64,000 bases of DNA from Oscillospiraceae bacterium (GTDB lineage: Bacteria; Bacillota; Clostridia; Oscillospirales; UBA929): positions 1,778 through 65,777 of the forward strand of contig JAIRUW010000060.1 of NCBI GenBank assembly GCA_031254195.1, written 5' to 3'. Every line of letters starts with the position of its first letter. Position 1 is the first letter of the stretch. Shown one piece after another: positions 2,424-52,680 of this stretch. The notes under the pieces were generated by a model that saw only the letters and a program-made list of their open reading frames with translations, did no database searches and had not been told where the DNA came from. The position numbers and the translations under genes are program-made.

Positions 2424-3635
2424 CTAACGCACGACCCATACGGGCGATACTCTATTATAACACATCTCCCATAAGATTTCGAGATGTTTTTTGTCGATGC
2501 GCTCGCCCGGCGCGAAAACCGGCGTTCCCGGCGCGTATGGGGCGAACGCACAGGCCGCGACCCGCCCGGCGGCGGCGGCCAGTTCGACCTGCTCCCGCTC
2601 GGCGAAAAACGCCTCCCGAGGCGTTAAGACCGCAACCGAAGGGATATGCGGGATGCCGCACTCAGCGTCCCGCACTTTACGGGCCGGAATAGCCTCCAAC
2701 GCCGCCGCCAGCCGCGCGAAGTCCCCATCTGTATTGTGCGGCGAGAGCATGAAAACGATGTGACATGCGTCGGCCATCTCGCAGACGACGCCAAGCTCCC
2801 TCTCCAGCCGCGCCGCATCGCCAAACCCGTCGCCGGTACGGACGGTCAACTTGGCGGGGTCGGCGTTTGGAAGGATACGCCTGTCTTTCTTCTTCATTGC
2901 ATTTGAAAACGCAATAACCCGTTCCCAATCGCCGCCCCCGCCGCGCGCGACCGCGTCAAGCGAGGCCAGCAAGAGAAACGACGGCGACGCGGTGCCGAAC
3001 TCCGCCGTCTTCCCGCGCAACAGCTCCGAGCCGGCCGTCCCGTCGGACAGCAGCATCGCCGTTTGCCCCAACGCGCCGAGGGTTTTATGCGCCGACACCA
3101 CCCAAAGGTTCCCCGGCGGGGTATAACCGTCCGTGCAAAACGGCAGGTGCGCGCCATGCGCCGCGTCGCAAAGCACAAGTCCGTCCGTTTCAGGCCGTTG
3201 GAATATTGTCCCGTAGTAATCGGGAGAAGTATACACCACCGGCTCCGCCGCTTGAGGGGGTTCTCCATAAAACCAAACCGGACGCAGGTCCAGCAAGGCC
3301 AGCGCGTTGTATACGCTGCGGTGGCACGCCCGGGCGACATGGACCGTATCCCCCGGCCGCGTCACGGCGCTCAGCATCGCATAGATCCCCTGTGTCGCGC
3401 CGCCGGTCAGGTAAAAGCAGTCCTCCGCGCCATACAGCGCCGCCATGGCGCGTTCGGAGCGGCGGATCGCGCCGTCCCGCTCATGATACAAATCGCCCGT
3501 GCCGGACAACTCGGTCACATCCAGCGGCGCGACGGCGTCAAACGGGGGCGGCAAGCGCCCCTTGTGCCCCGGCATGTGAAAACGCGCCGTCTGTTTGCCC
3601 GTGTAGGCATACAGTTCCGACAGCAGATCGCTCAC
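2424..3635 (-). CDS. Orn/Lys/Arg decarboxylase-family PLP enzyme (YaaO-like)
   Basis: 403 aa. N-terminal HMPGHKGR motif. GTGA overlap with the alr stop. Confidence 0.75.
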   Translation of the reverse strand: MSDLLSELYAYTGKQTARFHMPGHKGRLPPPFDAVAPLDVTELSGTGDLYHERDGAIRRSERAMAALYGAEDCFYLTGGATQGIYAMLSAVTRPGDTVHVARACHRSVYNALALLDLRPVWFYGEPPQAAEPVVYTSPDYYGTIFQRPETDGLVLCDAAHGAHLPFCTDGYTPPGNLWVVSAHKTLGALGQTAMLLSDGTAGSELLRGKTAEFGTASPSFLLLASLDAVARGGGGDWERVIAFSNAMKKKDRRILPNADPAKLTVRTGDGFGDAARLERELGVVCEMADACHIVFMLSPHNTDGDFARLAAALEAIPARKVRDAECGIPHIPSVAVLTPREAFFAEREQVELAAAAGRVAACAFAPYAPGTPVFAPGERIDKKHLEILWEMCYNRVSPVWVVR

Positions 3636-4693
3636 TGAATCTTCCGCGGCAAACCCCCGGCGAAGAGCGGGTTGACCTCGACATGGGCCATCGTTCCCAC
3701 CGCCGCGCCCGACTTCGTGAGGTCCACCACCATATGGTTCTGCCCAATCAGCCCGAGGACGGTGACGTCTTCCCCCGTCTCCAGCCGGACATGGATGTTT
3801 CCGTAGCCGCGCCGTACCGGCGTCAGCCCAATCAGCCCCGTATATACAGGCTTATCCATCGCGACGCCGCCCGCGTACCCTACCGGAATCAGCCCCGCGC
3901 GGATCGAACGGCGCAATTTCAGCCGCCCCGCGACAGGGACCCCGGCCGGAATCCACCGCACATCGGTGACAGGGACGGTTATCGCGCCTACCCGTGACAG
4001 CCCCGTCTTACCGGGGATGCGCCCGGTCATGGCCGCGCCGACGCGCACCATGTCATATTGTTGCAGTGAGGGATATTTGAACAGCGCCGTTGATCCCAGC
4101 GCGTGGACATGACCCGTCTCATAGGATTTTTCCCGCAGCGCGGCCAAAACTCCTTCAAAGCCTTCGAGGCAAACCCGCGCTTTTTTGAGGGACAGGCCGC
4201 CCGGCAAGTGCGTATACACCCCCGACACGGCGATGTTTTGCATATAGGAGAAAATGTTGAATATCTGGTCCGTCTCGCGCGGCAGGAAGCCATACCGCCC
4301 CAGGCCGCAGTCGATCTTAACGTGCGCCTCGGCCACGGCGCTGCGTTTTTCCGCGATGCCGCTCAAGGCCAGCGCCGCCTCCTGCGAGCCGACGGTGGCG
4401 ATGACATTGTTGTCCAGCAGCGCGTTGATCTCGTCCGGCACCGCGGTAGAGCGCATCAGCAGGATTTCCTCCTGCGTAAACCCCTCGGCGCGGAGCAGCG
4501 CCGCGTCGGCAGGGTCGCCCACCCCGAAGCGGCGCACGCCGATCTCCCGCCAAAATTTCGCCATCGGCAGCAGGCCCAGCCCGTAGGCGTTGTTTTTCAG
4601 CACCGCCATGACATGCGCGCCGGAGAGACGGCGGCAGACCTCATGGTAATTTTTCTTGAGCAGGGCTTTGTCTATATGGAGTTCCTTTGTCAC
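3632..4693 (-). CDS. alr: alanine racemase
   Basis: AVLKNNAYGLG PLP-lysine region. Start moved from the track TTG at 4753 (which is the -35 box) to GTG 4693 behind an AGAGGGGG RBS. Confidence 0.8.
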   Translation of the reverse strand: MTKELHIDKALLKKNYHEVCRRLSGAHVMAVLKNNAYGLGLLPMAKFWREIGVRRFGVGDPADAALLRAEGFTQEEILLMRSTAVPDEINALLDNNVIATVGSQEAALALSGIAEKRSAVAEAHVKIDCGLGRYGFLPRETDQIFNIFSYMQNIAVSGVYTHLPGGLSLKKARVCLEGFEGVLAALREKSYETGHVHALGSTALFKYPSLQQYDMVRVGAAMTGRIPGKTGLSRVGAITVPVTDVRWIPAGVPVAGRLKLRRSIRAGLIPVGYAGGVAMDKPVYTGLIGLTPVRRGYGNIHVRLETGEDVTVLGLIGQNHMVVDLTKSGAAVGTMAHVEVNPLFAGGLPRKIQ

Positions 4694-4724
4694 GGGTTGA
4701 CCCCCTCTTGTTTGGGTTGTTCTT

Positions 4725-4753
4725 ATATTACCCTTTTTTTCGGGGATTTGCAA
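4725..4753 (-). promoter_or_regulatory. sigma-A type promoter for alr operon
   Basis: TTGCAA-17 nt-TAATAT on the minus strand, directly after the terminator of the upstream PIN gene. Confidence 0.5.
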
Positions 4754-4761
4754 GCGGGATT

Positions 4762-4790
4762 GAAAAAACCCGTCCTTGCGGGCGGGTTTG
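4762..4790 (-). terminator. intrinsic terminator after PIN gene
   Basis: Minus strand AACCCGCCC-GCAA-GGACGGGTT followed by TTTTT. Confidence 0.65.
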
Positions 4791-4793
4791 CTT

Positions 4794-5174
4794 TTAGGCT
4801 TTGATTAACCTCTTCAATTTATCGTCAAATGTAAGGATTATATAGTTTTGTTGTTTTGAGTATTCATAAAGCACGCAATCAACAAAGTCAAGGTTTTTAC
4901 TGCCAAAAGTCTTAACAGCATTGACTAGGGTATCAGAATCACACCCGGCGTCAACAAAAAATCTTTCAAGATGCTCAGAAACTTTGGCGTGTGGTAAATT
5001 ATAGTATTTTGACAGAACATAGACAACCTCCGCAACGACTTCCGGTAAGAGTAATACTTCCTCGTTTTGCAGCGCTGTTTCGACTATATCAGCCTGTTCG
5101 GGTATATCGTCTATAATGTAACGCAAAATTGCATTTGCGTCAAGAATGATAATTTGCCGCATACCTTTCCACAA
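4794..5174 (-). CDS. PIN-domain toxin (VapC-like)
   Basis: 126 aa. IILDANAILRY... start with acidic residues typical of PIN. Overlaps the upstream small gene. Start is TTG 5174 or ATG 5162. Confidence 0.7.
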   Translation of the reverse strand: MWKGMRQIIILDANAILRYIIDDIPEQADIVETALQNEEVLLLPEVVAEVVYVLSKYYNLPHAKVSEHLERFFVDAGCDSDTLVNAVKTFGSKNLDFVDCVLYEYSKQQNYIILTFDDKLKRLIKA

Positions 5175-5409
5175 CCGCCCTTTCCCATGCGCCTTTTTCG
5201 CCCGGTATCATTTCGGGGTTAGCGCACTCGTGAAAAATCCCCCGCGACTTTAACACTTTGCCCTTTACTTGTTCTTCTACAGCGTCAACCGGTGTTAGCA
5301 TTATCACACCGTTTTCCTCATGCACTCGTACCCTGTCGCTGCGGAATCGGCGGTGTAGCGGCTCGGGCAAGGTGCTGACGTTCAAAATCATATCGTCCAT
5401 CATGCTCAA
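5140..5409 (-). CDS. putative antitoxin partner of PIN toxin
   Basis: 89 aa small ORF immediately upstream of and overlapping the PIN gene. Family not recognised with certainty. Confidence 0.5.
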   Translation of the reverse strand: MSMMDDMILNVSTLPEPLHRRFRSDRVRVHEENGVIMLTPVDAVEEQVKGKVLKSRGIFHECANPEMIPGEKGAWERAVVERYAANYHS

Positions 5410-5562
5410 CTCCTTCTAGTCGTAGTATACCCTAAACAAGACGGTTTGGCAATATCCCTTGTCATTGACGCCGAGCAGACGCAGAAACCCCGCCGCCACC
5501 CAGCGTGTGACCGGCGTGACGGCGGAGGGTTTCATTCTATGTAAGGCTTTGCGGGCCTAAAA

Positions 5563-6140: not shown

Positions 6141-6169
6141 GTAGGGGCGGCCTTTGGCCGTCCGTCGTA
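6141..6169. repeat. REP-like hairpin repeat GTAGGGGCGGCCTTTGGCCGTCC (copy 1)
   Basis: 8-bp stem GGGCGGCC/GGCCGTCC (one G-T) with a TTT loop. Same motif at 6740, 23403, 28577 and 36041. Confidence 0.8.
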
Positions 6170-6739: not shown

Positions 6740-6768
6740 GTAGGGGCGGCCTTTGGCCGTCCGTCGTA
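6740..6768. repeat. REP-like hairpin repeat (copy 2)
   Basis: Identical core GTAGGGGCGGCCTTTGGCCGTCCGTCGTA. Confidence 0.8.
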
Positions 6769-9767: not shown

Positions 9768-11600
9768 TCAACCTTTTCCCCGCAACCAAATCATCAGCGC
9801 CGTCAAATCCGCCGGGCTGACGCCGGAGACGCGAGACGCCTGTCCCAGATTTTGGGGGCGTACGCGGTTTAGCTTCTCCCTCGCCTCCAGGCGCAGTCCT
9901 TGTATGGCGGCGTAATCCACATCCTCCGGCAACGCCCGGTTTTCCATGTGGGACAGCTCCTCCATCAGCGCCCGCTGGCGGCGCAGGTAGCCCTCATATT
10001 TGACCTGTATCTCCACCTGCTCCGCTACCTCATCCGATACGTCCGGGCGGGAGGGGTCGGACACCGCGAGCGACGCGTACGTAACCTCCGGGCGGCGCAA
10101 TTGCGCAGTCAAGCGCGCCTTATCCAGCCGCGCGATCTCGTCCTCCACCGCCTTGTTTTTTTCCATGACCGTATCGTATCGTTCCTTGGGCAGCAGCCCA
10201 AGCTCATACCCCAGCGGCGTCAGGCGGGCGTCGGCGTTGTCTTGCCGCAGCAGCAGACGGTATTCACTGCGCGAGGTCATCATGCGGTACGGCTCTTCCG
10301 TGCCGCGCGTTACGAGGTCGTCGATTAGTGTGCCAATATAGCTGGACGAACGAGGGAGGACAAAAGGCCCTTTCCCCTGTACATGCCTTGCCGCGTTGAT
10401 CCCCGCGACCAGCCCCTGCGCCGCCGCCTCTTCATACCCGGACGAGCCTAAAATCTGTCCGGCGGAAAACAGGCCGGGGAGTTGCTTCGCCATCAGCGTC
10501 GGCGTAAAACAGAGAGGGTCGGCGCAGTCATATTCGATGGCGTAGCCGGGGCGGGTCATCACGGCCCGTTCCAGCCCCGCGACGGCGTGAAGGACTCTCT
10601 CCTGCACATCCTCCGGCATGGACGACGACAGCCCCTGCAAGTAGTATTCGTCCGTGTCCAGCCCCATCGGCTCGCAGAAAACGGGGTGGCGCTCCTTGTC
10701 GGCAAAACGCACCACCTTATCCTCAATCGACGGGCAGTAACGCGCCCCTACGCCTTCGATCACACCCGAATACATCGGGCTTTTGTCCAGATTCTCCCGC
10801 AGTATCGCATGGACAGCTTCATTTGTCCATGTCATCCAGCAGGAGACGATGTTTTTTACGGGACGGGGCGTTGTGAACGAAAACGGGACGGTATCCTCCC
10901 CGTCCTGACGCTCCATTTGGGAAAAGTCAATCGTCCGCCCTAACGCGCGGGGCGGCGTGCCCGTCTTAAAGCGCCGCAGGCGCAACCCCAACCGCAGCAG
11001 CGCTTCCGACAACGCCTTTGCCGGCAGCAGCCCGTCCGGCCCGGCCTCGCTGACATGGGCGCCGGTGAGGACGCGGCTGTTGAGGAAGGTGCCGGTGGCG
11101 ATGACCACGGTTTTGGCAGTGTATTGCGTTCCGGCGGCGGCGGTGAGGATATAACTCCCTCCGCCGTCAGCGGACGGCACCTCCCTCGGCGAGGGAGGCA
11201 TAGCCCCCCTCCAGAGGGGGGCGGAGGGAGCAATATCAACAATCTCCGCCTGTTTGAGCGTGACTTCGCGCTCCAGCAGGCGTTTCATATGGGCGCGGTA
11301 AGCGATGCGGTCGGCCTGCGCGCGCAACGAATGCACCGCGGGGCCTTTGCCGCGGTTGAGCATCCGGTATTGGATACAGCAGGCGTCGGCGGCTTTGCCC
11401 ATCTCGCCGCCCAGCGCGTCGATTTCGCGCACCAGATGGCCTTTGGCCGTGCCCCCGACAGACGGGTTGCAGGGCATATTGCCCACGGCGTCGAGCTGTG
11501 TCGCGAAACAGATGACAGAACAGCCCAAACGTGAAGCCGCCAGAGCGGCCTCGATGCCGGCGTGCCCCGCGCCCACGACGGCGACGTCATATAGTCTCAT
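9768..11600 (-). CDS. mnmG: tRNA uridine-5-carboxymethylaminomethyl synthesis enzyme MnmG (GidA)
   Basis: 610 aa. VVGAGHAGIEAALA FAD motif, MPCNPSVGG, FKTGTPPR. Confidence 0.9.
   Translation of the reverse strand: MRLYDVAVVGAGHAGIEAALAASRLGCSVICFATQLDAVGNMPCNPSVGGTAKGHLVREIDALGGEMGKAADACCIQYRMLNRGKGPAVHSLRAQADRIAYRAHMKRLLEREVTLKQAEIVDIAPSAPLWRGAMPPSPREVPSADGGGSYILTAAAGTQYTAKTVVIATGTFLNSRVLTGAHVSEAGPDGLLPAKALSEALLRLGLRLRRFKTGTPPRALGRTIDFSQMERQDGEDTVPFSFTTPRPVKNIVSCWMTWTNEAVHAILRENLDKSPMYSGVIEGVGARYCPSIEDKVVRFADKERHPVFCEPMGLDTDEYYLQGLSSSMPEDVQERVLHAVAGLERAVMTRPGYAIEYDCADPLCFTPTLMAKQLPGLFSAGQILGSSGYEEAAAQGLVAGINAARHVQGKGPFVLPRSSSYIGTLIDDLVTRGTEEPYRMMTSRSEYRLLLRQDNADARLTPLGYELGLLPKERYDTVMEKNKAVEDEIARLDKARLTAQLRRPEVTYASLAVSDPSRPDVSDEVAEQVEIQVKYEGYLRRQRALMEELSHMENRALPEDVDYAAIQGLRLEAREKLNRVRPQNLGQASRVSGVSPADLTALMIWLRGKG
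11155..11230. repeat. 76-nt multi-hairpin palindromic element embedded in frame in mnmG
   Basis: Outer arms CTCCCTCCGCC/GGCGGAGGGAG enclose three short GC hairpins. Encodes ..PSAPLWRGAMPPSPREVPSADGGG.. Confidence 0.7.
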
Positions 11601-18400: not shown

Positions 18401-18452
18401 GGGTGCGCATTGCGCGTCCGCGGACGGCCGGTGGCCGCCCCTGCGTTAAGGA

Positions 18453-23402: not shown

Positions 23403-23429
23403 GCAGGGGCGGCCTTTGGCCGTCCGTGG
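23403..23429. repeat. REP-like hairpin repeat (copy 3)
   Basis: GCAGGGGCGGCCTTTGGCCGTCCGTGG. Confidence 0.8.
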
Positions 23430-35340: not shown

Positions 35341-35867
35341 CAGCTTTTTATCTTGTTTCGGATGTACATACGAAACGCCTCCAGCATACGCTCACTCGGC
35401 TCAAAAATCAGCAGAGTACGCTTGCCGTCCTTCGCGTGGAATATCGCAAACCAGCGGCCCGGCGCTTCGGTGTGGCTCGATACGTCCACTACGGTTGTGA
35501 TGGCTTGCGACTCATACTCGCCGCGGTAGTCTGTTTTATAGGGGGCTAAGATGTCGAAATTGCGGCAATCAACCGTCATGATGCGCTTGCGGGAGTTGCG
35601 CCCCATGATCTTGTCCACATCCATCTCGCCGTTCGTGACGATGTATTCAAATTCCAAATTCAAGCGGCGGAACAGGATGAGCATCCCCCAGCCCGCGCCC
35701 ACGATCGTAAACGGCATGATCATACCCAACGGAATCCCCGTAAACGCTTCCAGAATCAGAGGCAGAAGCGCCACGATGACCGCCGAAAACGACAGCAGGC
35801 ACTTTTGCATAAAGATCTTCAGGGTCGGGCGCCGTATCACCATATGTTCTACAAATACATCGGCCAT
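35340..35867 (-). CDS. small membrane protein, unknown function
   Basis: Track ORF trimmed to MADVFVEHMV behind an AAGGAGGA RBS. Two TM segments. Confidence 0.5.
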   Translation of the reverse strand: MADVFVEHMVIRRPTLKIFMQKCLLSFSAVIVALLPLILEAFTGIPLGMIMPFTIVGAGWGMLILFRRLNLEFEYIVTNGEMDVDKIMGRNSRKRIMTVDCRNFDILAPYKTDYRGEYESQAITTVVDVSSHTEAPGRWFAIFHAKDGKRTLLIFEPSERMLEAFRMYIRNKIKS

Positions 35868-36040
35868 AGCGAATCCTCCTTTAGGCCATAGCTTCCTATT
35901 CCCGTCTTCCGTCGGTCTATTTATTATATCACCGTTATCCCCATCTGACAAGCACAGCATCCTGTAGTTCCAGCATTGACAGACCACAAGCGGACGCGCA
36001 AAGCGCGCCCTTATAATGTGATAATTTCATATATATGGTT

Positions 36041-36067
36041 GCAGGGGCGGCCTTTGGCCGTCCACAG
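36041..36067. repeat. REP-like hairpin repeat (copy 5)
   Basis: GCAGGGGCGGCCTTTGGCCGTCCACAGG. Confidence 0.8.
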
Positions 36068-36074
36068 GCGTAAA

Positions 36075-36169
36075 CTCCCCCTGTCGCCTTCGGGCGACAT
36101 CCCCCTCTTGGAGAGGACAAAAACCTCCCTCTGAGAGGGAGGTAGGCGCCTCATGGCGGTCGGAGGGAG
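36075..36169. repeat. multi-hairpin palindromic element, intergenic relative of the mnmG insert
   Basis: Ends CTCCCCCTGTCGCC...GGCGGTCGGAGGGAG. Hairpins TGTCGCC-TTCG-GGCGACA, CCTCT-TGG-AGAGG and CCTCCCT-CTGAG-AGGGAGG. Confidence 0.65.
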
Positions 36170-36186
36170 ATAAATGCGTCCCGCCG

Positions 36187-36435
36187 TCAGTCGGCCGGAC
36201 GCTCGTTTTTGAGAAGATCCCCAACCTCGCATTGCAGGACATAGCAGATTTTCGCCACTACATCCAAGTCAACCCCTGAAATACCGTCCCCTTGATAATA
36301 ACGGTTAATCGTATTATAGGACAACCCCGTCATTTTCGCAACTTTATTCCTATTGAATCCTCGCATCTCCATTGCTTCTCTAAACGTTATAATAACTTTA
36401 CCGTAATTTTTCAGAACAAAAATTCCGCTATCCAT
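36187..36435 (-). CDS. XRE-family HTH regulator
   Basis: 82 aa. FNRNKVAKMTGLSYNTINRYYQG HTH. Confidence 0.7.
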   Translation of the reverse strand: MDSGIFVLKNYGKVIITFREAMEMRGFNRNKVAKMTGLSYNTINRYYQGDGISGVDLDVVAKICYVLQCEVGDLLKNERPAD

Positions 36436-52575: not shown

Positions 52576-52680
52576 TGGCGGCAAAACAGCCATTCCCCGA
52601 ACCGCCCGATTGTCGGACATACTCCGCCGAAGTTACCAGCAACGCTGCAATCTCCGGCATCATCGCAAAGACGCTTGAGT

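Follow-up and report, generated by a model that had tools for sequence, protein, structure and literature searches.

A dispersed multi-hairpin DNA repeat lying in frame within mnmG of an Oscillospiraceae bacterium, and its association with DUF559 genes

Results

The mnmG locus

We analysed a 64,000-nt stretch (the window) of contig JAIRUW010000060.1 from an Oscillospiraceae bacterium (assembly GCA_031254195.1), in which the conserved tRNA-modification gene mnmG (gidA) contains a G+C-rich multi-hairpin element at positions 11154-11231 (Table 1). The gene product matched the E. coli MnmG structures 3CP2/3CES at 6.5e-169 and was identical to GenBank MDR0326107.1, from an Oscillospiraceae metagenome-assembled genome (MAG). 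On the plus strand, positions 11155-11230 read CTCCCTCCGCCGTCAGCGGACGGCACCTCCCTCGGCGAGGGAGGCATAGCCCCCCTCCAGAGGGGGGCGGAGGGAG. As single-stranded DNA the element gave one fold, a closed junction in which an outer stem encloses three hairpins, with an energy of -32.3 kcal/mol against -16.5 +/- 2.2 in dinucleotide shuffles (z -7.1; none of 200 shuffles as good), and the coding strand of the element as RNA folded at -61.9 kcal/mol (z -7.0). The outer stem measured 8 bp in the minimum-energy fold because the two outer hairpins overlap the outer arms by 2-3 bases. GGAGGGAG, within the right outer arm, mirrors the purine arm GAGGGAGG, and the motif CCTCCCTCNNNGAGGGAGG occurs exactly twice in the window, in this element and at 36124, against 0.02 occurrences expected by chance.

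We built a covariance model, R1, from 29 copies in foreign genomes and no window sequence, and scanned the whole window with filters off. R1 found only the mnmG element, with 57.0 bits (E 1.6e-10) on the minus strand and 53.9 bits on the plus strand, and an intergenic copy 25 kb away, the next best match reaching 14 bits; scoring on both strands, the element is a pseudo-dyad. A first-pass annotation of the window had described the palindrome in mnmG as 76 nt long: its arms and hairpins were as described and close a junction (z about -7), but the family model recognises 78 nt. The intergenic relative that the same annotation had placed at 36075-36169 proved real and belongs to the same family by its R1 score. 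This second copy is 70% identical to the mnmG copy over 84 nt, runs in the orientation of the mnmG coding strand, and lies between a small helix-turn-helix gene (36187-36435, minus strand) and an open reading frame (ORF; 35340-35987, minus strand).

The mnmG segment and its orthologs

The closest MnmG relatives among 5.8 billion proteins shared 77-86% identity with it over aligned positions, and most of them are 584-604 aa in length. Where these relatives read ...EI(V/T)DI(I/A)P-ADGG-F..., the window protein reads ...EIVDIAP-SAPLWRGAMPPSPREVPS-ADGGGSY..., and comparison of the DNA of five orthologs showed them to be 18 codons shorter exactly at the site of the element. These five loci share their neighbourhood (an AMP-dependent ligase, the S component of an energy-coupling-factor transporter, and mnmG), and no R1 match was present in six mnmG ortholog loci. 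Relative to the orthologs, the window gene holds a net 54 extra bases between GCT CCC and GCT GAC GGC GG; the element ends take the place of about 8 host codons, giving the net gain of 18 codons. Because syntenic orthologs of 77-86% identity lack the element, the mnmG segment is an insertion. A 54-nt insert with host-derived outer arms and a TCCGC target-site duplication was considered and rejected, as the family consensus assigns the whole 78 nt, including GGAGGGAGT, to the element.

These results support the conclusion that the mnmG segment is an in-frame insertion of a repeated palindromic element, read through as a surface loop. The annotation had proposed just this, by analogy with the Rickettsia palindromic elements (RPEs), and its proposal was borne out by family copies elsewhere, by orthologs without the segment and by a loop predicted at low confidence; its statement that other MnmG proteins are 15-20 aa shorter at this place agreed with the 18-codon difference from close orthologs. 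The ortholog alignment that it had suggested for delimiting the insert gave the boundaries above, no unrelated lineage carried the segment, and other copies exist, including the second one in the window. Judging from its distribution and from its presence and absence between genomes, the element is probably mobile.

The element encodes MnmG residues A124-S149, APSAPLWRGAMPPSPREVPSADGGGS (26 residues), with GAMPPSPR and EVPSADGGGSYILTAAAGTQYTAK among the predicted tryptic peptides spanning the insert. In an AlphaFold model of the window MnmG built on the ortholog alignment (mean predicted local distance difference test score, pLDDT, 74.6), strands at 120-125 and 150-154 were joined by coil, with pLDDT <50 for residues 130-146. 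The insertion falls on a beta-hairpin turn of the FAD-binding domain, where orthologs have a short P-A-D-G-G turn, and the insert is thus predicted to be a disordered Pro/Ser/Gly/Arg-rich loop at the hairpin tip. Given the intact reading frame, it is probably translated as part of MnmG. The mnmG copy is open in four of six frames, and across the family copies are open in 70 of 174 frames, with lengths evenly spread modulo 3; the in-frame state is therefore what selection would be expected to leave over and not a property of the element.

The repeat family

Family copies were gathered by a pattern of the two central hairpins in a scan of one genome per species, which yielded 39 stretches. Their sources included several termite-gut Oscillospiraceae MAGs (one with at least 9 copies), Faecousia, Ruminococcus, Caproiciproducens sp. 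R1, Faecalibacterium prausnitzii, F. hattorii, Schwartzia and other Selenomonadales, Collinsella, Rhodocyclaceae/Zoogloeaceae, one deltaproteobacterium and one Gracilibacteria MAG. Almost all extracted copies had a common architecture of about 95-120 nt, in the order ACTCCCCC, a variable hairpin (usually GTC..GAC), CCCCCTC-NNN-GAGGGGG, a short T-rich spacer, CCTCCCTC-NNN-GAGGGAGG, T, a second variable hairpin (G.C..G.C) and GGAGGGAGT. A full copy thus consists of two inverted half-units closed by the outer stem ACTCCCCC/GGAGGGAGT. The mnmG copy aligned end to end with 30 family copies and lacked one variable hairpin only, so that it has three hairpins of the four, all of which are present in the intergenic copy at 36074-36170. 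Its right end, TGCCGTCCGCTGACGGCGGAGGGAG, differed from copies of the termite-gut MAG WRLG01, TGCCGCCCGCAGGCGGCGGAGGGAG, at 3 of 33 positions, two of them a compensatory pair, and its variable hairpin at 11163-11178 is nearly identical to GCCGCC-CGCA-GGCGGC of that MAG, with a compensatory pair differing.

Across the 29 foreign copies, 95.3% of cells paired in the hand-drawn structure, and 12 of 34 pairs showed compensatory changes, a number reached in none of 500 shuffles; when partners were slid by 1-3 columns, pairing fell to 50-58%. Covariation was found in the two variable hairpins, in one outer-stem pair and in the closing pair of the C-rich hairpin CCCCCTC-NNN-GAGGGGG (GC 13, CG 10, UA 4). 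The CCTCCCTC hairpin was invariant across these copies, but it had been demanded by the search pattern. Its closing pair was G.T in 28 of the 29 copies, an A.C position mirrors this G.T on the other half, and wobble and mismatch counts showed no overall strand bias. Divergent subfamilies, judged by eye, have other block sequences, yet their outer arms are still mutually complementary and approximately mirror the hairpin arms (L054, L069, L091 and L092; partially in L087 and L075). No copy in the window, in the local region or in eight canonical loci matched an Rfam family at the gathering score, the only threshold matches being one S10 leader in the window and two tRNAs in the loci, and we found no description of the multi-hairpin repeat family in the literature.

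Several individual copies were observed in unusual settings. Four lie within 4 kb in L008 (1690-5732; MAG Th196P3bin149, WRLG01000024), where the downstream flanks hold further GGAGGGAG-like words, which suggests local amplification or nested partial copies. In the chromosome of Faecalibacterium prausnitzii strain 2 (L016, 6160-6304), a copy sits within the loop of a 12-bp terminator-like hairpin (AAAAAACAGGGCTGTTGC ... GCAACAGCCCTGCTTTT). A preference for hairpin loops was considered and rejected as a general rule, as only 2 of 44 copies had flanking inverted repeats of at least 6 bp (control mean 0.3). Carriage by phages was likewise set aside, since the matching GenBank "Bacteriophage sp." entries are unverified, unannotated fecal scaffolds. 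The strict two-hairpin pattern had no match in IMG/VR; a right-half pattern matched 50 viral contigs there (L131-L180), of which only 5 held a full-length copy. The half-units in viral contigs read CCTCCCTC NNN GAGGGAGG T ... GGARGGAG, and the match in L160 has a DUF559 gene about 165 nt away; the repeat may have this half-unit as its basic module.

Copies in other genes

We found at least four further in-frame copies in other conserved genes, one in rsmG and three in a single penicillin-binding protein (PBP) gene. The rsmG gene, of 267 codons (L044, Oscillospiraceae MAG Hs463_bin100), contains an antisense copy, and its product matched Pfam GidB (9.8e-44) in two stretches. An 88% identical ortholog of 226 aa (P0122) is 38 aa shorter overall, 24 aa of these at the insertion site, which is a variable loop just before the S-adenosylmethionine-binding motif DVGSGAGFPG. 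In a Gracilibacteria genome (L043, MAG-60), a 762-codon class A PBP ORF (2608-4893, minus strand; genetic code 25) holds three in-frame copies in the sense orientation, which is also the orientation in mnmG. Peptides of the sense frame resemble the MnmG insert (..SP.LRG....PPS.REV....GGS).

Several other candidates were rejected. The regular spacing in L043 had suggested an integron-attC-like cassette array, but the copies lie within one PBP gene under genetic code 25. Scanned ORFs around the candidate intragenic copies in L025 and L035 lacked convincing Pfam support (L035 had one weak sub-threshold match downstream of the element), and ORFs in L012, L017, L019 and L033 were set aside by inspection as seemingly spurious open frames in G+C-rich DNA. 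A peptide-profile search for in-frame copies returned four tiny ORFs only, the peptide being too short.

Association with DUF559 genes

We scanned 148 ORFs near copies against Pfam and considered the 25 families, of 141, found in the largest numbers of these ORFs; DUF559 (PF04480) was among them. In L011, L013, L038, L041 and L043, copies lie close to a DUF559 gene of one subfamily (about 115-137 codons), and in four of these loci they do so on both of its sides. A base-by-base reading of L013 and of L038, where the DUF559 gene is at 1373-1729, placed the nearest copies about 15-80 nt away from the start and stop codons of the gene. In a reciprocal test, 80 metagenomic loci picked by DUF559-protein homology alone were scanned with R1, and 53 contained matches. 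A match lay within 200 nt upstream of the gene in 40 of the 80 loci (commonly at 6-46 nt), within 200 nt downstream in 33 (commonly at 1-30 nt) and on both sides in 21. These matches were mostly in the same orientation as the gene, with some tandem arrays of 130-nt period. After dereplication, the element was present in 40 of 59 DUF559 clusters at 90% identity and in 29 of 39 at 70% identity.

The DUF559 subfamily matched the endonuclease-like structure 3HRL at 1e-18, and it also matched an E. coli YcjD-type model, but below the cut-off of that model. Among the PD-(D/E)XK nucleases of the Vsr/DUF559/DUF2726 clade are a nicking enzyme specific for mismatches and a homing endonuclease of a group I intron (PMC3424549).

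Tandem arrays of the element were also seen on both sides of DUF559 genes in contigs of human-gut metagenomes (L069 938-2062; L059 667-1693; L087 838-1703), with a period of about 120-200 nt.

Other repeats in the window

The window contains another short repeat, a hairpin GGGCGGCC-TTT-GGCCGTCC with six copies in 64 kb against 0.07 expected. GTAG or GCAG precedes the hairpin in the three copies that were read, so the repeat looks like a GTAG-tagged repetitive extragenic palindrome (REP). The intergenic multi-hairpin element has one copy of this short repeat 10 nt upstream of it, and GTAGGGG... sequences likewise flank a multi-hairpin copy in MAG WRLG01 (L022). An S10-Clostridia ribosomal protein leader (RF03136, 42.9 bits; 52610-52671, minus strand) lies upstream of the ribosomal protein cluster and is ordinary.

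Table 1. Positions of the elements and their parts in the window and, where stated, in the Gracilibacteria locus L043
Feature	Positions	Strand	Remarks
mnmG (gidA) coding sequence, 610 aa, host of the insertion	9768-11600	-	ORF list; Pfam GIDA 5.3e-144 and both MnmG C-terminal domains
mnmG copy of the repeat	11154-11231	-	Solo copy without one of the two GTC...GAC hairpins; encodes MnmG residues 124-149
Left outer arm CTCCCTCCGCC (plus strand)	11155-11165		Sequence; predicted pairing with 11220-11230
Variable GTC/GAC-type hairpin GCCGTC-AGCG-GACGGC	11163-11178		Sequence, fold; this hairpin class covaries in the family
Sequence-conserved hairpin CCTCCCTC-GGC-GAGGGAGG	11180-11198		Sequence, fold; in all aligned copies, though demanded by the search pattern
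Sequence-conserved hairpin GCCCCCCT-CCAG-AGGGGGGC, (G)CCCCCCT-CCAG-AGGGGGG(C)	11203-11222		Sequence, fold; family form CCCCCTC-NNN-GAGGGGG
Right outer arm GGCGGAGGGAG (plus strand)	11220-11230		Sequence; family consensus ends in GGAGGGAGT; outer-stem covariation in family and divergent subfamilies
Full-length intergenic copy, outer stem and four hairpins	36074-36170	+	R1 68.0 bits, E 6.5e-13; fold z -4.9
GGGCGGCC-TTT-GGCCGTCC repeat, exact	6145-6163, 6744-6762, 23407-23425, 36045-36063		
GGGCGGCC-TTT-GGCCGTCC repeat, variant	18422-18440	-	
GGGCGGCC-TTT-GGCCGTCC repeat, variant	28582-28600		
In-frame copies in the PBP gene (L043)	3112-3213, 3811-3912, 4532-4630		
Fourth copy (L043)	5367-5469		Just upstream of DUF559 gene

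Discussion

Considering these results together, we read the mnmG element as a solo copy, slightly shortened, of a dispersed structured DNA repeat rich in G+C, which entered mnmG in this lineage, is read through as a disordered loop and has survived purifying selection, and we give this reading a probability of about 0.8; that the repeats are mobilised by DUF559 proteins is the part we infer. A copy would have entered at the tip of a beta-hairpin of the FAD-binding domain in the lineage of this Oscillospiraceae genome, and it could persist there with a net change that is a multiple of three (+54 nt), a used frame without a stop codon and a site at a surface turn; with all three in place, the gene would be read through. 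The copies within genes are best understood not as adaptations but as what purifying selection has spared of insertions that were essentially random.

The structure would act as DNA, forming a cruciform, hairpin or triplex on either strand; the DNA level is favoured over RNA because of the strand symmetry, the occurrence of both orientations in genes and the lack of a strand bias in wobble pairs. A nuclease would recognise the extruded hairpin or cruciform and make a nick or break, and mismatches conserved at hairpin bases, such as the G.T closing pair, may play a part. New copies would then arise by break-and-copy (homing-like, short-homology-primed repair with another copy as template) rather than by cut-and-paste, and the DUF559 protein may be the trans-acting nuclease. 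At the mnmG site, orthologs read GC(C/T)CC(C/G) directly followed by GC(A/T)GACGGCGG, which resembles joined element ends, and the ortholog sequence CCCGCAGACGGCGGG is identical to CCCGCAGGCGGCGGA of a WRLG element copy at 13 of 15 positions. The site may therefore fit a copy-by-short-homology route, weakly so because the rsmG junction gives no such signal.

Several points weigh against this account. The window itself contains no DUF559 gene, 27 of the 80 DUF559 loci had no R1 match, and most dispersed copies lie far from any DUF559 gene, so that this gene could be a preferred neighbour or cargo instead of the engine. The similarity of target and element at 13 of 15 positions could be due to chance in G+C-rich sequence, and at the empty rsmG site clear similarity to the element ends was absent. 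Mobility is read from distribution and from presence and absence, and the MnmG proteins of the genomes compared share only 77-86% identity. The two conserved hairpins look invariant in part because they were set by the search pattern, and divergent subfamilies exist. In addition, so stable an mRNA structure (-61.9 kcal/mol) might by itself have consequences when it lies in a coding region.

Among the alternatives, the one that survives best, though we consider it unlikely, is a miniature transposon moved by a conventional transposase, with DUF559 as cargo or as a favoured landing zone in repeat arrays. The majority of copies, which are not next to DUF559, and the 27 of 80 DUF559 loci without the element would fit it, as would two neighbouring ORFs with a PD-(D/E)XK transposase-type domain (PDDEXK_2). 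Like miniature inverted-repeat transposable elements (MITEs) such as Correia, ERIC and Nezha, the element is about 100 nt long, dispersed and sometimes intragenic or co-transcribed, and it has terminal inverted repeats (ACTCCC(C/T)CC ... GGAGGGAGT, thus ACTCCC.../...GGGAGT) whose outer stem covaries. Unlike MITEs, it keeps its internal hairpins by covariation and shows no target-site duplication; neither a duplication nor a conserved target motif was seen across 69 copies, where a weak A...T bias merely extends the palindrome, and the element therefore falls outside the MITE definition. Among the best 25 of the 141 Pfam families in the 148 ORFs, no transposase family appeared apart from the two PDDEXK_2 matches, and no parent insertion sequence was seen. 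The link to DUF559 is also precise in position, the gaps being 6-46 nt on the upstream side and 1-30 nt on the downstream side, and recurs in 40 of 59 dereplicated clusters.

A functional RNA is improbable. By this account the element would be an mRNA structure tuning mnmG translation or decay, or an opposite-strand small RNA, with repeats elsewhere as terminators or stabilisers; the very stable RNA fold and the covariation that keeps its pairing are in its favour, and repeats of the REP type are often part of transcripts and can make mRNAs more stable (PMC3733652). However, no copy matches Rfam, the pseudo-dyad scores almost equally on both strands, copies occur in either orientation relative to genes and form tandem arrays, and close mnmG orthologs function without the element. 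The wobble and mismatch counts, free of overall strand bias and with the G.T of one half mirrored by A.C on the other, argue in the same direction.

We regard as highly improbable a lineage-specific loop kept for MnmG function whose palindrome is incidental, or an artefact of MAG assembly. The frame is intact, the D-G-G-G residues resemble the ADGG turn of orthologs and the source is a MAG contig, but copies of this DNA are also found outside coding regions and, in different frames and orientations, within other genes, the predicted loop is disordered, and mnmG is colinear and in frame on both sides, which a chimeric join rarely gives. A local origin from the sequence of mnmG itself, by template switching or quasi-palindrome correction around the GCTCCC / GACGGCGG motifs, is the least credible of all: the net 54-nt gain is flanked by conserved host codons (AP and ADGG) partly complementary to the insert, yet the 78-nt unit can be aligned over its full length with copies of unrelated genomes and scores 57 bits with the foreign-only model, its right end is only 3 of 33 positions from copies in another termite-gut MAG, and a second copy lies in the same window.

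In-frame palindromic repeats within conserved genes are best known from Rickettsia. Like RPEs and intragenic REPs (Ogata et al.; Di Nocera et al. 2013), our repeat is a small palindrome found between genes and in frame in conserved genes, adding 20-30 residues, with no evident target-site duplication and with tolerance presumed at surface sites. It differs in that its hosts are Firmicutes and several other phyla rather than Rickettsia, with the family conserved across phyla, in forming a multi-hairpin junction instead of a single or long hairpin, and in being tied to DUF559 genes. RPE-4 and RPE-6 are CGTC REPs, with 8-9 bp stems starting in A/T and a CCA tail (Di Nocera et al. 2013, PMC3733652); compared by description, the element has no GTAG/CGTC tag before an A/T-started stem and no CCA tail. 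GTAG/CGTC REPs are moreover single palindromes of 20-40 bp with an unpaired tag, whereas the element is a junction of 78-120 nt with GTC inside the stems of its variable hairpins. It is probably an analogue of RPEs and no member of an RPE family, a distinction drawn by description from RPE-4 and RPE-6, with RPE-1 sequences not aligned.

The arrangement around DUF559 recalls the REPIN/RAYT system ('REPtron'), in which a small nuclease-type gene is likewise bracketed by dispersed short structured repeats that are arranged as inverted dimers. In our case, however, the bracketed gene is a DUF559/Vsr-like PD-(D/E)XK gene and not a tyrosine (HUH) transposase of the IS200/IS605 type, no Y1 transposase appeared among the best 25 of 141 Pfam families in ORFs near copies, and the repeats form four-hairpin junctions.

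A further comparison is with BoxC/PIT/TMECO (Bergler 1992; Hoyne and Maher 2000), which is also G+C-rich, also consists of a pyrimidine block, a loop, a purine block and a mirror purine block, and also forms inverted pairs; a full copy of our repeat is built much like two such units in inverted orientation. This intrastrand triplex motif is highly conserved, and its function is not known; TMECO is reported to be proteobacterial, always intergenic and not linked to mobile elements, and has the pattern CCCTCNCCC N3-6 GGGNGAGGG N3 GGGNGAGGG (Holder et al. 2015, PMC4666352). In the element, GGAGGGAG mirrors GAGGGAGG and CTCCCCC mirrors CCCCCTC, which points to a potential for triplex formation, but its blocks are 8 nt long (CCTCCCTC / GAGGGAGG / GGAGGGAG) and a hairpin of 15-30 nt replaces the 3-nt second loop. 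By inspection it does not match the TMECO pattern, and R1 had no match in the E. coli ycjD-fabI region with its BoxC-like sequence; the element was therefore not filed as BoxC. In that region of E. coli K-12 (NC_000913.3, about 1351030-1351850; L129 11030-11850), the DUF559 gene ycjD has sapF and fabI on its two sides, its start falls within a perfect 17-bp inverted repeat, a G+C-rich inverted-repeat motif CCCTCTCCC-TGAAAGAGC-GAGGGGG overlaps its stop codon, and a BoxC-like sequence, CCCCTCGCCCCTCTGGGGAGAGGGTTAGGGTGAGGGG, follows about 185 nt beyond that motif. BoxC was reportedly first described in the fabI (envM) region, by Bergler in 1992. This arrangement suggests that the association of DUF559 with repeats may extend to enterobacterial BoxC. 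We consider the element a new cross-phylum variant of the REP/RPE/BoxC kind, from a family absent from Rfam.

A broader and more tentative proposal, which we hold to be possible but doubtful, is that the repeats and the DUF559 genes they bracket form an unrecognised selfish unit, REP/RAYT-like but built on a PD-(D/E)XK nuclease, which would spread repeats of the BoxC type, able to form cruciforms or triplexes, among phyla and also, in frame, into conserved genes, with E. coli BoxC/PIT and ycjD as its enterobacterial version.

The in-frame palindrome phenomenon is now found in free-living gut anaerobes and in a bacterium of the candidate phyla radiation, with one family across phyla. Such repeats inflate and diversify conserved proteins and can confuse gene calling, orthology assignment and quality checks of MAGs, and annotating the family would explain many orphan "hypothetical" mini-ORFs. 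The most interesting lead is the link to DUF559, which gives this widespread domain of unknown function a candidate function that can be tested, and offers a possible explanation for the E. coli BoxC/PIT elements, which have been without one for thirty years.

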